A stretch of 8,949 bases of DNA, from IMG/VR virus record IMGVR_UViG_2585427710_000015; one strand, written 5' to 3'. Source of the DNA: a virus. Lineage: Duplodnaviria > Heunggongvirae > Uroviricota > Caudoviricetes. This document shows, piece after piece, positions 1 through 6,147 of the stretch. The number at the start of each line of letters is the position of its first letter. The stretch's first letter is position 1. The notes under the pieces are model-generated. The model made no database searches. It was not told the DNA's origin and saw only the letters and a list, made by a program, of their open reading frames with translations. A program made the translations under genes and the position numbers.

Positions 1-696
1 CAGGATATTCACGAAGCAAGCCTGAACGAGTCGGTTAAATCAGAGCAGTCACCGCGGGTGGTGCTCTGGGAAATCGACCTGACGGTGCAGGGCGGTGAGC
101 GGTATTTTTTCTGCAATGAGCTGAATGAAAAAGGGGAGCCGGTGACCTGGCAGGGGCGTGAATATCAGGCGTACCCGATTGAGGGGAGTGGCTTTGAGAT
201 GAACGGAAAGGGCAGCAGTGCCCGCCCGTCGCTGACGGTGTCCAATCTTTTCGGCCTTGTCACCGGGATGGCGGAGGATTTGCAGAGCCTGGTGGGGGCC
301 ACGGTGGTCCGTCGCCGGGTGTATGCGCGTTTTCTGGATGCGGTGAACTTTGTGGCAGGCAATCCTGAGGCAGACCCGGAGCAGGAGCTGAGAGACCGCT
401 GGGTGGTGGAGCAGATGTCAGAGCTGACGGCCATGACAGCCTCGTTTGTGCTGGCAACACCGACGGAGACGGACGGAGCGCTGTTTCCCGGTCGCATCAT
501 GCTGGCGAACACCTGTATGTGGGATTACCGGGGCGATGAATGCGGGTATAACGGTCCGGCAGTGGCGGATGAGTTCGACAACCCCACCACGGATATCCGG
601 AAGGACAGATGCAGTAAATGCATGCGCGGGTGTGAGATGCGCGGCATGGTGGCTAATTTTGGCGGTTTCCTTTCCATTAATAAACTTTCGCAGTAA
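1..696 (+). CDS. L: Tail tip assembly protein L (gpL-like), 5'-partial: the frame is open from base 1 and the true start lies upstream of the window
   Basis: Frame 1 is open from position 1 (QDIHEASLNESVKSEQSPRVVLWEIDLT...) to TAA at 694-696. Translation matches my recollection of lambda gpL along its length (VLWEIDLT..GERYFFCNE..NEKGEPVTWQGR..GRIMLANTC.W.YRGDECGY..FGGFLSINKLSQ). The C-terminal Cys cluster (C..C..CSKC..C) is present. Synteny L-K-I-J supports the call. Similarity is recalled, not computed. Confidence 0.9.
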   Translation, partial: QDIHEASLNESVKSEQSPRVVLWEIDLTVQGGERYFFCNELNEKGEPVTWQGREYQAYPIEGSGFEMNGKGSSARPSLTVSNLFGLVTGMAEDLQSLVGATVVRRRVYARFLDAVNFVAGNPEADPEQELRDRWVVEQMSELTAMTASFVLATPTETDGALFPGRIMLANTCMWDYRGDECGYNGPAVADEFDNPTTDIRKDRCSKCMRGCEMRGMVANFGGFLSINKLSQ

Positions 697-706
697 ATCC
701 CGTTTT

Positions 707-1450
707 ATGACACAGACTGAATCAGCGATTCTGGCGCATGCCCGGCGGTGTGCGCCTGCGGAGTCGTGCGGCTTCGTGGTGAGAACGCCGGAGGGGGAGC
801 GGTATCAGCCGTGTGTGAATATCTCTGCAGAGCCGGAGGCGTATTTTCGTATTGCACCGGAAGACTGGCTGCGGGCAGAGATGCAGGGGGAGATTGTGGC
901 ACTGGTCCACAGTCATCCCGGTGGTCTGCCCTGGCTGAGCGAGGCCGACCGGCGGCTGCAGATAAAAAGTGCACTGCCCTGGTGGCTGGTCTGCCGGGGG
1001 GAAATTCACAAATTCCGCTGTGTGCCGCACCTGACCGGACGGCGCTTTGAACACGGGGTGACGGACTGTTACACCCTGTTCCGGGATGCATACCATCTGG
1101 CGGGGATTGAGATGCCGGATTTTCACCGTGAGGATGACTGGTGGCGCAACGGTCAGAACCTGTACCTGGACAATATGGAGGCCACCGGCTTTTACCGGGT
1201 GTCCCTGTCCTCTGCACAGGCAGGCGATATCCTGCTGTGCTGCTTTGGCGCATCGGTGCCGAATCATGCCGCCATTTACTGTGGCAACGGTGAGCTGCTT
1301 CACCATATACCTGAACAACTGAGTAAACGGGAGAGGTATTCAGAGAAATGGCAACGACGAACGCATTCTGTCTGGCGTCACCGCCACTGGTCCGCATCTG
1401 CCTTCACGGGGATTTACAACGATTTGGTCGCCGCATCAGTCTGTATGTGA
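707..1450 (+). CDS. K: Tail tip assembly protein K (gpK-like) with MPN/JAMM and NlpC/P60 motifs
   Basis: ATG at 707 lies 10 nt after the L stop with no obvious SD, so translational coupling is possible. The ORF runs to 1450 (247 aa). A JAMM-type motif H-S-H-x7-S-x2-D (HSHPGGLPWLSEAD) and NlpC/P60-like Cys (DCYTLF) and His (NHAAIY) are visible. The 3' end overlaps I by 103 nt in another frame, as I recall for lambda K/I. The listed ORF beginning at 446 is the same frame running back into L; 707 is the first ATG after the L stop. An internal start (e.g. the ATG at 881) cannot be excluded. Confidence 0.88.
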   Translation: MTQTESAILAHARRCAPAESCGFVVRTPEGERYQPCVNISAEPEAYFRIAPEDWLRAEMQGEIVALVHSHPGGLPWLSEADRRLQIKSALPWWLVCRGEIHKFRCVPHLTGRRFEHGVTDCYTLFRDAYHLAGIEMPDFHREDDWWRNGQNLYLDNMEATGFYRVSLSSAQAGDILLCCFGASVPNHAAIYCGNGELLHHIPEQLSKRERYSEKWQRRTHSVWRHRHWSASAFTGIYNDLVAASVCM

Positions 1451-2028
1451 ACACGGCAGCGGAGGCCATCCGTGCCCTGTCGCAGCAGGTGCCGGGATTC
1501 CGCTGTCAGATGAACGAAGGCTGGTACCAGATACGTATTGCCGGTGAGGATACCGCGCCGGAGGCGGTGTATGCCCGTCTTCATGAACCGCTGAGCGGGA
1601 GGGCCGTGATTCATATTGTACCGAGGCTGGCAGGGGCCGGGGGAAATGGTGTTTTTCAGGTGGTGCTGGGGGTTGCAGCGATTGTCGGGTCATTTTTCAC
1701 TGGTGGTGCAACACTGGCGGCATGGGGCGCAGCCCTGAGTGCCGGAGGGCTGACTGCCACCACGATGCTGTTCTCACTGGGTGCCAGCATGATACTGGGT
1801 GGTGTGGCTCAGATGCTGGCCCCGAAGGCAACGACGCCGGAGTATAAAAGCACGGATAACGGCAGACAGAACACGTATTTTTCGTCACTGGATAACATGA
1901 TTGCCCAGGGGAACCCGATGCCGGTGCCTTACGGTGAAATGCTGGTTGGTTCACGACGGATATCCCAGGACATCAGCACCCGTGATGAGGGCGGAGACGG
2001 GAAAGTGGTGGTTATCGGACGGGGATAA
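1348..2028 (+). CDS. I: Tail tip assembly protein I (gpI-like)
   Basis: 226-aa ORF. The motifs RICL.GDLQRFGRRI, AVIHIVPR.AGA and the Gly/Ala-rich hydrophobic stretch (GSFFTGGATLAAWGAA..GG.T) plus the C-terminal NTYFSSLDNM.AQGN..PV.YGEM.VGSR..SQ.IST.DEG match recalled lambda gpI. The start overlaps the K 3' end by 103 nt. Confidence 0.9.
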   Translation: MATTNAFCLASPPLVRICLHGDLQRFGRRISLYVNTAAEAIRALSQQVPGFRCQMNEGWYQIRIAGEDTAPEAVYARLHEPLSGRAVIHIVPRLAGAGGNGVFQVVLGVAAIVGSFFTGGATLAAWGAALSAGGLTATTMLFSLGASMILGGVAQMLAPKATTPEYKSTDNGRQNTYFSSLDNMIAQGNPMPVPYGEMLVGSRRISQDISTRDEGGDGKVVVIGRG

Positions 2029-2066
2029 AAATAAAAAAATCCCGCAGAGTTAGCGGAGCTGCGGGA
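2029..2066 (-). terminator. Intrinsic (rho-independent) terminator for leftward transcription, placed immediately right of the I stop codon
   Basis: Read on the minus strand: UCCCGCAG-cuccgcuaacu-CUGCGGGA followed by UUUUUUUAUUUUUAU. The stem is 8 bp and GC-rich (+ coords 2040-2047 pairing with 2059-2066), the loop 11 nt, and the U-tract is the complement of + 2029-2039. On the + strand the same hairpin is followed by AGAGAUACG with no U-run, so it terminates only leftward transcripts. Confidence 0.7.
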
Positions 2067-2127
2067 AGAGATACGAAGATTAACTGTAAGGAGTTATTAT
2101 TATGTCACAGCAAAAAAACGGTAACGC
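2029..2127 (-). ncRNA. Candidate ~95-100 nt small RNA, transcribed leftward from the promoter at 2134-2161 and ending at the terminator at 2029-2066
   Basis: A near-consensus sigma70 promoter and an intrinsic terminator on the same (minus) strand bracket about 95 nt with no plausible ORF. Predicted RNA, 5' end approximate: cugcguuaccguuuuuuugcugugacauaauaauaacuccuuacaguuaaucuucguaucucuucccgcagcuccgcuaacucugcgggauuuuuuuauuuuuau. The TSS is predicted and the RNA is hypothetical until detected. Confidence 0.4.
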
Positions 2128-2140
2128 AGAGAAATTATAA
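2102..2140 (+). CDS. Tiny ORF (12 codons, MSQQKNGNAEKL) with a strong Shine-Dalgarno; possibly a leader peptide or a remnant translation start, and possibly not expressed
   Basis: TAAGGAG at 2087-2093 is followed after 8 nt by ATG at 2102, and the ORF ends at TAA 2138-2140. The SD and the whole ORF are fully complementary to the candidate minus-strand RNA. The peptide is short and hydrophilic and does not look like a type I toxin. Confidence 0.15.
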   Translation: MSQQKNGNAEKL

Positions 2141-2161
2141 GCGCCACTGGGATTTTGTGAA
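2134..2161 (-). promoter_or_regulatory. Sigma70-like promoter on the minus strand: -35 TTCACA, 16-bp spacer, -10 TATAAT
   Basis: On the minus strand, -35 TTCACA is the reverse complement of + 2156-2161 (5/6 match to TTGACA). The 16-bp spacer is the complement of + 2140-2155. The -10 TATAAT is the complement of + 2134-2139 and is a perfect consensus hexamer. The upstream minus-strand sequence, which is the 27-bp repeat, is AT-rich and could act as an UP-like element. Predicted TSS is near + coordinate 2127. Confidence 0.55.
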
Positions 2162-2187
2162 AATGTGAAGAATTTCAGAAATTTTAT
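2161..2187. repeat. Copy 1 of a perfect 27-bp direct repeat AAATGTGAAGAATTTCAGAAATTTTAT containing a CRP-box-like TGTGA-N6-TCAGA
   Basis: Identical 27-mers occur at 2161-2187 and 2340-2366. The flanking sequence 5' of each copy is similar but degenerate (cactgggattttg versus cacgggaatttg). The core resembles the CRP consensus AAATGTGA-N6-TCACATTT, with AAATGTGA exact and TCAGA versus TCACA. Confidence 0.8.
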
Positions 2188-2339
2188 GTTGCGGAGCTGA
2201 ACTAAAAAACGCTCCCGCAATACACCTGGATATTAACGGGAGGAACGAATAGTCACCTTAAGGAGTTGCGATTAATTGCTTTTATTGACCGCAGGTAATC
2301 TACCCATCCGGCAAGGTTTCCTCCACGGGAATTTGCCGG

Positions 2340-2366
2340 AAATGTGAAGAATTTCAGAAATTTTAT
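2340..2366. repeat. Copy 2 of the perfect 27-bp direct repeat (CRP-box-like TGTGA-N6-TCAGA)
   Basis: Identical to 2161-2187 and 179 bp downstream of it. It lies 12 nt upstream of the rightward terminator hairpin and 86 nt upstream of the J start codon. Confidence 0.8.
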
Positions 2367-2377
2367 TCCGTCATGAC

Positions 2378-2409
2378 ACAGGCACCCTCCGGGGTGCCTG
2401 TCGTTTTCT
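2378..2409 (+). terminator. Intrinsic terminator on the + strand, 43 nt upstream of the J start
   Basis: Perfect 10-bp inverted repeat ACAGGCACCC (2378-2387) / GGGTGCCTGT (2392-2401) with a 4-nt loop UCCG, followed by CGUUUUCUG. On the minus strand no U-run follows the hairpin. Confidence 0.6.
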
Positions 2410-2451
2410 GGCATAAACAGATTCAGACATCAGACAGGAGAGGGGGACAGA

Positions 2452-5400
2452 GTGGGTAAAGGGGGTGGCAAGGGGCACACACCGCGTGAGGCGAAGGACA
2501 ATCTCAAATCCACGCAGATGATGAGCGTGATTGATGCCATCGGTGAGGGACCGGTGGAAGGCCCGGTGAAGGGACTGCAGAGTATTCTGGTGAACAAAAC
2601 CCCGCTGACGGACACGGACGGTAATCCCGTGATACACGGTGTGACCGCCGTCTGGCGTGCCGGGGAGCAGGAGCAGACACCGCCGGAAGGCTTTGAGTCC
2701 TCCGGTGCTGAAACCGCACTGGGCGTGGAAGTGACGAAGGCAAAGCCGGTGACGCGCACCATTACGTCCGCGAACATTGACCGCCTGCGGGTCACCTTCG
2801 GGGTGCAGTCACTGTTGGAGACCACCTCAAAGGGCGACCGTAATCCCTCTTCTGTCCGACTGCTGATTCAGTTGCAGCGTAACGGTAACTGGGTGACGGA
2901 AAAGGATGTCACCATTAACGGCAAGACCACCTCACAGTACCTGGCGTCGGTGATTCTGGAGAATCTGCCTGAGCGGCCCTTTAACATCCGGATGGTCCGG
3001 GAGACGGCGGACAGCACCACGGACCAGCTGCAGAATAAGACGCTCTGGTCGTCATACACCGAAATCATCGATGTGAAACAGTGCTACCCGAACACGGCCA
3101 TTGTGGGGCTGCAGGTGGATGCGGAGCAGTTCGGCGGCCAGCAGATGACGGTGAACTACCATATCCGCGGTCGCATCATCCAGGTGCCGTCAAACTATGA
3201 CCCGGAAAAACGCACCTACAGCGGTATCTGGGACGGCAGCCTGAAACCGGCATACAGCAATAACCCGGCCTGGTGCCTGTGGGACATGCTGACTCACCCG
3301 CGCTACGGGATGGGAAAACGCCTGGGGGCCGCGGATGTGGACAAGTGGGCGCTGTATGCCATCGGGCAGTACTGCGACCAGACGGTCCCGGATGGTTTCG
3401 GGGGCACAGAGCCGCGGATGACCTTTAATGCGTACCTGTCACAGCAGCGTAAGGTGTGGGATGTCCTGGGGGATTTCTGCTCGGCGATGCGCTGTATGCC
3501 GGTATGGAACGGTCAGACGCTGACGTTCGTTCAGGACCGTCCGTCGGATGTGGTGTGGCCGTACACGAACAGCGATGTGGTGGTGGATGATAACGGCGTG
3601 GGGTTCCGCTACAGCTTCAGCGCCCTGAAGGACCGCCACACGGCGGTGGAGGTGAATTACACCGACCCGCAGAACGGCTGGCAGACCTCCACGGAACTGG
3701 TGGAAGACCCGGAAGCCATACTGCGCTACGGGCGCAACCTGCTGAAGATGGATGCGTTCGGCTGTACCAGCCGCGGTCAGGCCCACCGTGCCGGACTGTG
3801 GGTGATAAAGACAGAACTGCTGGAAACGCAGACGGTGGATTTCACGCTCGGGTCTCAGGGGCTGCGGCACACACCCGGTGACATCATTGAAATCTGTGAT
3901 AACGACTATGCCGGGACCCTGACCGGCGGACGCATCCTGTCCATCGATGCCGCCAGCCGCACACTGACGCTGGACCGTGAGGTGACACTGCCGGAAGCAG
4001 GTACATCGACGGTGAACCTGATTAACGGCCGTGGTAAGCCGGTGCGCGTGGACATCACTGCACAACCCGCCCCGGACCGGATACAGGTCAGCACCCTGCC
4101 TGATGGTGTGGAGACATACGGTGTATGGGGACTCTCCCTGCCGTCACTGCGTCGTCGCCTGTTCCGCTGTGTCTCCATCCGGGAAAACACGGACGGCACC
4201 TTTGCCATCACGGCGGTGCAGCACGTACCGGAAAAAGAAGCCATCGTGGATAACGGGGCCCGCTTTGAGCCGATGTCCGGCTCACTGAACAGCGTCATCC
4301 CGCCGGCGGTGCAGCACCTCACGGTGGAGGTGAGTGCCTCAGACGGCCAGTATCTGGCGCTGGCGAAATGGGACACGCCGCGGGTGGTGAAGGGTGTGCG
4401 CTTCAGTCTGCGCCTGACCAGCGGAAGCGGTGAAAACAGCCGTCTGGTGACCAGCGCCATCACTGCCGACACGGAGCACCGTTTCAGTGGCCTGCCGCCC
4501 GGGGAATACACCCTGACGGTCAGGGCGATAAACAGCTACGGCCAGCAGGGCGAACCTGCCACCACCACGTTCCGGATTAACGCACCGGCAGCACCGGCCA
4601 GCATTGAACTGACGCCGGGGTATTATCAGATAACGGCGGTCCCGCATCTTACGGTGTATGACCCGACGGTACAATTTGAGTTCTGGTTTTCGGAGGCAAA
4701 AGTCGCAGACACCGCACAGGTGGAAACGTCCGGCCGTTATCTGGGTACCGGCAGCCAGTGGAGTGTCTCCGGCCCGCACATTAAGCCCGGGAAGGATTTC
4801 TGGTTTTATGTGCGCAGCGTCAACCTGGTGGGGAAATCTGCGTTTGTGGAGGCCAGCGGGCAGGCCAGCAATGATGGTGAAGGGTATCTGGAAATTTTCC
4901 GTGGGCTGATAGATGAGGCGCTGCTGGGGAAGGCACTGAAAGAGCGTATTGATGCGTCAGCCCTGCGTACTGAGGTCACGCAACTGGAAGAAGACATCCG
5001 CCAGCGGCTGGAGACGGATGTTGCGGAAGTGACCCGAAAAATCGGGGAGGCGGAAAACAGCCTCACGCAGCTGGTTGCGAAAAAGAATGAGGACCAGACG
5101 CTGGCCATCGCGCAGGTGAGTCAGCAGGTGGACCGGGTGAGCAGTGAAATCACACAGACAGTCAGCCAGAGCACGGAGGAAAACGCCAGGCAGATAGCGC
5201 AGGTCCGCCAGTACGTGGATGACAAAGGGAGTGAAATCACCTCGACCACGGATAAAAAGCTGGAAGACCAGAGCGCGACCATACAGCAGATACAGCAGGT
5301 CCAGTCAGACACGAATGATGAGCTGGCAGCGCTGTACATGCTGAAGGTGCAGAAAACGAAAAACGGCATTCCGTATGTTGCCGGTATTGGTGCGGGGATT

Positions 5401-6147
5401 GAGGATGCTGATGGCCAGACGCTGAGCAATATTCTGCTGCAGGCGGACCGTATCGCGATGATTACCCCGGAGAACGGCAACACCACGCCGCTATTTGTGG
5501 CGCAGGGGAATCAGTTGTTCATGAACGATGTGTTCCTGAAGCGGCTGTTTGCGGTGAGTATCACCTCGTCCGGCAATCCCCCGACGTTTTCCCTGACGCC
5601 GGAGGGCAGGCTGACGGCCCGCAATGCGGACATCAGCGGACATATCAGTGCGAACTCGGGCACGCTCAATAATGTTGTGATAGCGGAGAACTGTACGATA
5701 AATGGCACGCTGAAAGCGGGAAACATCATCGGGGATCTTATCAAGGGCGGGAGTGGCGCTTTCCCGCGTCAGAATGAGGGCAGTGTGAACTGGCCTTCCG
5801 GAACGCGCACGTTCACTGTGTATGATGATCACCCGTTTGACCGCCAGATAGTGGTACTTCCGCTGACATTTCGCGGAAGCAGGCGTACCGACAGCGGCAG
5901 AACAACATATTCGATGTGTTATCTGAAGGTGCTGATGAACGGTGCAGTGATTTATGACGGCGTGGCGAATGATGCACCTCAGGTTTTCGCCCGAATTGTG
6001 GATATGCGTGCGGGAGGTGGACACGTAACCCTGACATTCACGGTCACGTCCACACGGCATTCGGGAAATATTCCGCCGGATACGTTTGCCAGTGATGTAC
6101 AGGTTCTTGTGATGAAAAAGGGGGCATCAGGTATCAGTATCAGCTGA
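2452..6147 (+). CDS. J: Central tail fibre / host specificity protein J (gpJ-like), 1231 aa
   Basis: GTG start at 2452, preceded by AGGAG at 2436-2440 and a G-rich stretch. The N-terminus [22 protein letters not shown] and the protein throughout are collinear with recalled lambda gpJ (1132 aa). The C-terminus (...[21 protein letters not shown]) is also lambda-like. There is about 100 aa of extra heptad-like sequence around residues 809-980 relative to lambda. Confidence 0.95.

Follow-up and report, generated by a model that had tools for sequence, protein, structure and literature searches.

Small RNAs (sRNAs) encoded antisense to a small open reading frame (ORF) and occurring in repeated units are familiar from the Sib/Ibs type I toxin-antitoxin systems of E. 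coli, in which the Ibs toxins are conserved hydrophobic peptides with promoters of their own. A different kind of sRNA, PasB (pathogenicity-associated sRNA B), was annotated in the EPEC strain E2348/69 as an 83-nt RNA on the minus strand (1466343-1466261) between E2348C_1436 and E2348C_1437 (Table S6 of Pearl Mizrahi et al. 2021, PMC8550237). It was validated by northern blotting with the probe AATCCCGCAGTGATCGCGGAGCT, showed log2 fold changes of -6.8 and -2.4 in an hfq mutant, was recovered with 37 RIL-seq partners and was more abundant in overnight static LB than in exponential DMEM cultures; no common target motif was reported for it (PMC8550237). According to a recent survey, PasB variants differ by few nucleotides and no copies lie closer than 28 kb to each other (Zhu, Shabalina and Storz 2026, bioRxiv 10.64898/2026.05.13.724894). 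No function has been assigned to PasB, and Rfam contains no family for it. Wherever we refer below to its expression, size, Hfq dependence and RIL-seq partners, these are literature data on the E2348/69 orthologue only (PMC8550237), our own observations being the anatomy of a related gene, its homology, its conservation pattern and the non-conservation of an ORF on the opposite strand.

The stretch of DNA that we analyzed (the window; 8,949 nucleotides of the IMG/VR record IMGVR_UViG_2585427710_000015) is the tail module of a lambdoid prophage from Shiga-toxigenic or related E. coli. A 481-nt query taken around this ORF was 100% identical in E. coli 99-3311 and O103 ML775, where the locus is flanked by genes annotated as "tail assembly protein" (similar to lambda I) and "gpJ", with L, K, Lom and a tail fibre gene around it. 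By transfer of the RefSeq annotation of the identical 99-3311 region, the tail assembly protein I gene occupies positions 1447-2028 (+) of the window and the gene for the tail tip and host specificity protein J positions 2452-6147 (+). The 423-nt spacer between them carries no annotated feature. No Rfam family reached its gathering score anywhere in the window, the 1950-2500 segment giving sub-threshold noise only, and no sigma-70-like promoter was found on the plus strand of positions 1900-2600 at the threshold of our promoter scan. Of 5426 complete E. coli genomes, 780 contained a related spacer, as did 93 phage records, most of them from Stx-converting phages; the I-J position of these spacers is syntenically fixed in phages and prophages alike. 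Just upstream of J, a repeat search and a terminator scan detected a 10-bp terminator-like hairpin followed by a T-rich tail (2378-2411, +). This GC-rich hairpin, some 40 nt ahead of the start of J and inside the late operon, is kept in homologues despite changed stem bases (GGCACC/GGTGCC versus GGCATC/GGATGCC in one of them), and it may serve as an insulator in the lysogen.

The PasB gene of E2348/69 is likewise flanked by a tail assembly protein gene, which adjoins it, and by gpJ, both on the plus strand, and a literature search returned no sRNA other than PasB between I and J genes. The published northern probe, which equals the plus strand in E2348/69, could be aligned with positions 2038-2060 (+) of the window (aatcccgcagagttagcggagct) except in the terminator loop. 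The RNA predicted from the minus strand of the window and E2348/69 PasB share 78-79% global identity; blastn aligned them over 72 nt at 80.6% identity (E 4e-12), whereas default megablast gave no link, and BLAST with the E2348/69 query underestimates the diversity of the PasB family. A covariance model (R1) was built from 32 alleles from which window-like alleles had been excluded. It matched positions 2127-2033 (-) of the window end to end with 93.2 bits (E 2.4e-16). As decoys we used 80 unrelated loci sharing only the terminator motif, collected by scanning genome contigs with a terminator pattern of a common shape that occurs in many unrelated genomes, and none of them scored above 36.5 bits with R1. 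An earlier note on the window had proposed a promoter-driven antisense RNA converging on the ORF; this proposal holds as a gene model and matches a published sRNA. We consider it very probable that the I-J spacer encodes an sRNA of the PasB family opposite the tail genes and that the plus-strand ORF is this gene read backwards.

The primary transcript of the predicted gene would comprise 95 nt (2127 to 2033, -) with the sequence GCGUUACCGUUUUUUUGCUGUGACAUAAUAAUAACUCCUUACAGUUAAUCUUCGUAUCUCUUCCCGCAGCUCCGCUAACUCUGCGGGAUUUUUUU. It is preceded by a sigma-70-like promoter (2134-2161, -) that matches 11 of the 12 consensus positions in the promoter scan, with the -35 element TTCACA at 2161-2156, a 16-nt spacer and the -10 element TATAAT at 2139-2134. 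In 42 of 43 alleles a -10-like hexamer (TATAAT in 17, AATAAT in 16 and TATCAT in 9) lies at a fixed offset of 22 nt from a conserved upstream box, and the position 7 nt after the hexamer is a conserved G. Because of this fixed offset and conserved G, we place the start of the sRNA at about G2127. At the other end, a terminator scan and RNA folding both identified an intrinsic terminator (2040-2066, -) consisting of an 8-bp stem with an 11-nt loop, followed by U7 at 2039-2033, a 3' module of the kind bound by Hfq. The T-run follows the stem on the minus strand only, and the orientation of the terminator fits only that strand. The predicted length exceeds the 83 nt annotated in E2348/69, where the annotated RNA begins just past the U-run, 14-15 nt downstream of the start that TATAAT would predict (844 versus 859 in the corresponding contig, L002). 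This points either to processing of the 83-nt species or to imprecision at one of the two ends, for instance at the RNA-seq boundary.

The 95-nt RNA folds with -20.4 kcal/mol (z -3.2). In the single-sequence fold, a 5' hairpin and the terminator are formed, the UUAAUCUUCGUAUCUCUU stretch stays single-stranded, and CUCCUUAC is unpaired or part of a loop, while the RNAalifold consensus across alleles retained the terminator only. Pairing of the U-run with an A-rich stretch to form the 5' hairpin is suggested by single-sequence folds and by one allele group carrying UUCAU/AUGAA in place of UUUUU/AAAAA. We do not claim it as a conserved structure, since the sequences are of low complexity and out of register across alleles. 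Changes in the length of the A-run/U-run alter this hairpin.

Upstream of the promoter lies the conserved box, AAATGTGAAGAATTTCAGAAATTTTAT (2161-2187), which is one copy of a direct repeat and includes a CRP-like core, TGTGA-N6-TCAGA, at 2164-2179; a second copy of the box is found at 2340-2366 (core at 2343-2358). The CRP-like pattern was matched twice in the window against 0.24 matches expected, and the box was found in at least 120 viral contigs, being itself the key of that search. Relative to the predicted start, the CRP-like site is centred at about -44.5, a non-canonical position for CRP. Control by CRP would fit the higher level of PasB in stationary-phase LB than in glucose-rich DMEM.

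On the plus strand, the region around the ORF (...ctgTAAGGAGttattattATGtcacagcaaaaaaacggtaacgcagagaaattaTAAgc...) had been read in the earlier note as a near-ideal translation initiation region followed by 12 codons, and we could confirm each of its parts: the Shine-Dalgarno (SD)-like TAAGGAG at 2087-2093, the 8-nt spacer ttattatt at 2094-2101, the ATG at 2102 and an ORF at 2102-2140 (+) that translates into MSQQKNGNAEKL and ends with TAA at 2138-2140. The peptide is indeed hydrophilic and short. The combination of SD and ATG is, however, no more than expected by chance, AGGAG-N5-10-ATG occurring once in the window against 1.74 times expected from shuffled sequences, with at least one match in 166 of 200 shuffles. 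A second copy of TAAGGAGTT was found as described at 2259-2267, inside a 35-nt direct repeat (2068-2102 versus 2240-2274, 71% identity). The accompanying statement that no start codon follows this copy is true of ATG but not of TTG, since a TTG at 2276, 10 nt past GGAG, opens a 23-codon ORF, which shows no sign of being used. Similarly, coverage of the 12-codon ORF by the antisense RNA turned out to be partial: with a start near 2127, the SD, the ATG and codons 1-9 are covered, but the last 13 nt, stop included, sit under the discriminator and the -10 box (ATTATA, 2134-2139), and with the 5' end annotated for E2348/69 PasB, equivalent to position 2112, only the first 3-4 codons would be.

Superimposing the two strands gives each element of the ORF a counterpart in the sRNA gene. 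TAAGGAG, the SD-like element, is complementary to CUCCUUA of the sRNA body, a motif that is looped or unpaired in the folds; the A7 tract at 2112-2118, which forms codons 4-6 (CAA AAA AAC), is the complement of the U-run in the 5' part of the sRNA; and the TAA stop is the complement of part of the -10 box, which it overlaps. As the motif, the U-run and the -10 box all map onto them, the elements of the ORF are complements of elements of the sRNA gene.

A quite different explanation is that the small ORF is translated from the late tail mRNA as a micro-peptide or leader, for example to tune J, and is repressed by the antisense sRNA. The quality of the initiation region speaks for it, as do the facts that the plus strand carries the late operon in sense orientation and that a terminator-like hairpin precedes J. 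We tabulated, for each homologous unit, the SD-like hexamer, the start codons 3-12 nt downstream of it and the resulting peptide. An IMG/VR scan keyed on the conserved box yielded 120 loci, from which 143 units, 58 of them distinct, were extracted. Among these 58 distinct units, MSQQKNGNAEKL is encoded by the window only. Twenty units contain no start codon at all 3-12 nt downstream of the motif, and a further two were not scorable. No ATG is present in the E2348/69 allele, whose TTG would give MLLGQKNTNAAKL; alleles of the VT1-Sakai type (ATGGAG) mostly have no start codon in range. Even the nearest alleles, which differ from the window only in the A-run, shift the frame: A8 gives MSQQKKR and A9 a 22-aa peptide. 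The same was seen in complete genomes with an otherwise nearly identical spacer, where A7 (99-3311, SMBL) encodes 12 aa, A8 (O22:H8 154, GE3, FHI_NMBU_10) 7 aa and A9 (CFIAFB20190157, SCU-106) 22 aa. Some E2348-like alleles have lost the TAA stop but retain the -10 box that overlaps it.

The hairpin before J does not rescue a leader function, as it lies 240 nt downstream of the ORF, is also present in alleles devoid of the ORF and has no alternative-pairing partner that we could see by eye. Together with the chance frequency of the SD and ATG combination, these observations make a selected micro-peptide or leader very unlikely. The comparison proposed in the earlier note, between conservation of the ORF and of the RNA elements across homologues, thus came out against the ORF, which is disrupted where the RNA elements persist. 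We conclude that the 12-codon ORF is almost certainly not a gene but the opposite-strand reflection of a PasB-family sRNA. There is no doubt that the late operon, and with it the plus strand of the spacer, is transcribed during lytic growth, and given its strong SD the ORF could be translated in the window allele even without a selected function.

The A/U homopolymer itself (2112-2118 in the window; L124-L129 among the homologues) measures 7-9 nt in near-identical genomes and 5-9 nt across alleles. These differences could reflect real slippage or, in part, sequencing or assembly errors.

The earlier note had also likened the arrangement to type I toxin-antitoxin and leader-peptide modules. In the former case, PasB would play the part of the antitoxin RNA, and the toxin would be encoded either by the 12-codon ORF or by a longer plus-strand ORF, opened by ATGAAGATTAAC in 46 of the 58 units (for example L001, L002 and L007), whose products share the N-terminus MKINV.ELF. 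The sRNA does overlap the SD and the start of these small ORFs, and the units recur in tandem, as Sib/Ibs modules do. ATGAAGATTAAC is the complement of a conserved segment of the sRNA, GUUAAUCUUCAU. However, the ORFs measure anything between 10 and 54 aa, their frames shift and some stops are missing; in the window lineage, ACG replaces the ATG of MKIN. We accordingly rejected the MKIN ORF as a conserved coding sequence on account of its variable length, its shifting frames and its absence from the window allele. In one allele group a 1-nt insertion moves GGAGTT from the codons for K-E-L to those for Q-G-V-L with the nucleotides kept, which argues for constraint at the level of RNA rather than protein. 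None of these plus-strand peptides contains a hydrophobic stretch of transmembrane length, no plus-strand promoter is predicted in the spacer, and PasB behaves as an Hfq-bound RNA with 37 partners in trans. With the 12-codon ORF unique among 58 units, its frame broken by A7/A8/A9 and its ATG absent in most alleles, neither likeness could be upheld, and we regard a type I toxin-antitoxin system at this locus as extremely improbable.

Another suggestion of the earlier note, that the SD-like sequence is conserved for a reason at the RNA level, was borne out. The GG core is invariant within xGG(A/G/C)(G/A)TT in the 58 units (AAC-U/C-CC in the sRNA), the xGGAGTT form is kept even across different reading frames, and the motif is the complement of CUCC in the predicted single-stranded body of the sRNA. 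Conserved in the alignments are the terminator, GAAGATTAA (in the sRNA UUAAUCUUC), a T-rich stretch, the A-run and GTAAC. In alignment A1, the CC is the sole invariant internal element and belongs to a CUCC-like motif next to UUAAUCUUC. This pattern bears on the possibility that the sRNA acts mainly in cis, either as an I-J antisense RNA directing processing of the tail mRNA or as an RNA sponged by the late transcript at induction, with no special role for the SD-like motif. Full complementarity is inherent in the arrangement and the I-J position is syntenically fixed, both of which speak for such a role; yet PasB was detected in lysogens, in which the late genes are not expressed, RIL-seq recovered many trans partners, and cis pairing, being perfect for any sequence, makes conservation of CC and UUAAUCUUC among diverged alleles needless. 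A mainly cis-acting role therefore seems unlikely to us.

The trans-acting PasB-family gene that we favor would be organized, in the order of transcription, as the conserved box, the sigma-70-like promoter, the start at G2127, a 5' hairpin between the U-run and the A-rich stretch, a single-stranded body containing AACUCCUUACAGUUAAUCUUC, and the 8-bp terminator hairpin with U7 ending at 2033. The ATG on the other strand would be a lineage-specific accident. The sRNA would be produced in the lysogen and act in trans through base pairing, with Hfq stabilizing it via the terminator and the U tail. Its seed, we infer, most likely consists of the invariant CC within the anti-SD-like CUCC and of UUAAUCUUC next to it. 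Such a seed would pair with purine-rich ribosome-binding regions of target mRNAs, and the variable flanks would set the target range of each allele.

The direct repeats of the spacer tie positions 2144-2187 to 2323-2366 (86%) as well as 2068-2102 to 2240-2274 (71%), and the I-J spacer is composed of two diverged tandem units. The second unit, which we call type 2 (2204-2300, -; its 5' limit is uncertain), has a hairpin at 2242-2212 and U6 at 2209-2204 and folds with -33 kcal/mol (z -2.9) into a terminator-like hairpin. Its body carries AACUCCUUAAGG (2267-2256), the complement of the second TAAGGAGTT, and its minus strand reads ...AACUCCUUAAGGUGACUAUUCGUUC before a terminator hairpin different from that of unit 1. 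The promoter scan detected no sigma-70 promoter for it, and inspection by eye no -10 element at the conserved 22-nt offset, which is occupied by AACCTT in this allele. With the type-1 model R1 the second unit scores only 12.2 bits, so that homology is deduced from the repeats and from the architecture common to both units. Eleven distinct type-2 units were found in other loci. The allele of the window is common to several of them (L004, L012, L094, L095 and others), which indicates that it is stable and not a one-off decay product. L023 and L051 combine a 5' half resembling type 1, in which TATAAT occupies the conserved offset, with the seed and terminator of type 2, so that the units appear to be modular.

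Among the 116 I-J spacers of the IMG/VR sample, 97 contained a single unit and 8 a type 1 plus a type 2 unit, as does the window; the remainder comprised one spacer with two units, one with three and nine with four in tandem. Examples of tandem arrays of up to four units are provided by L052 (12174-13081) and by L029, L056, L057, L071, L100, L051 and L098, each unit having its own minus-strand terminator, variable body and conserved box. Diverged tandem PasB copies appear not to have been described before, the published survey having found none closer than 28 kb.

We tentatively propose, as a possibility that we would rate somewhat below even, that the I-J spacer is a modular, recombining cassette site for one to four tandem PasB-like sRNA genes, all of them neutralized by the antisense late transcript, in which the units share the CRP-like box, the promoter geometry and the anti-SD-like CC core but differ in their flanking seeds and draw on two interchangeable terminator modules. 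If so, a prophage could hold a battery of related riboregulators with different target ranges, the whole of which would be neutralized by the antisense transcript of the late operon at induction, and the window would represent a two-unit example, with a second unit that possibly lacks a promoter.

These results remove a false lead toward a small protein or a toxin-antitoxin system and exemplify a more general trap, in that an intergenic sequence resembling a strong SD can be complementary to an anti-SD-type motif in an sRNA encoded on the opposite strand. The CC core, the tandem arrays of up to four units and the CRP-like box lead to testable hypotheses on the seed, the regulation and the evolution of PasB.

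Compared with known systems, the locus resembles Sib/Ibs in combining a small RNA antisense to a small plus-strand ORF with repeated units. It differs in that ORFs of the type found in the window are conserved neither in length nor in frame and are not hydrophobic: in place of a conserved, hydrophobic, membrane-active peptide the window has a hydrophilic one unique to it, and positions 1900-2600 (+) contain no promoter for a toxin mRNA. Nor is there a conserved leader ORF coupled to alternative hairpins, as in leader or attenuator systems, the plus-strand hairpin (2378-2401) being 240 nt away and present in alleles without the ORF. With AgvB and AsxR of EHEC prophages (PMC4104026) it would share the nature of a short Hfq-binding sRNA of lambdoid prophages in pathogenic E. 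coli that is conserved in its 3' part and variable in its 5' part. We rejected identity with these sRNAs, which sit at the moron site downstream of PR' and stx and not between tail genes; the window has no match to their Rfam families (RF02702 and RF02703), and the supplements of Tree et al. 2014 (PMC4104026) contained no tail-locus sRNA that we could find. With PasB of E2348/69, finally, the window feature has in common the I-J slot, the antisense orientation, the terminator stem, U7, TATAAT, the upstream box and the motifs AACUCCUU and (U/G)AUCUUC. It differs from it in the body between the U-run and the terminator (UGUGACAUAAUAAU... versus CCCGAGUAACAAAAAC...), in the terminator loop and in the presence of an additional diverged tandem unit. 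The published PasB sRNA family gains with this feature a new allele, one accompanied by a diverged tandem partner.
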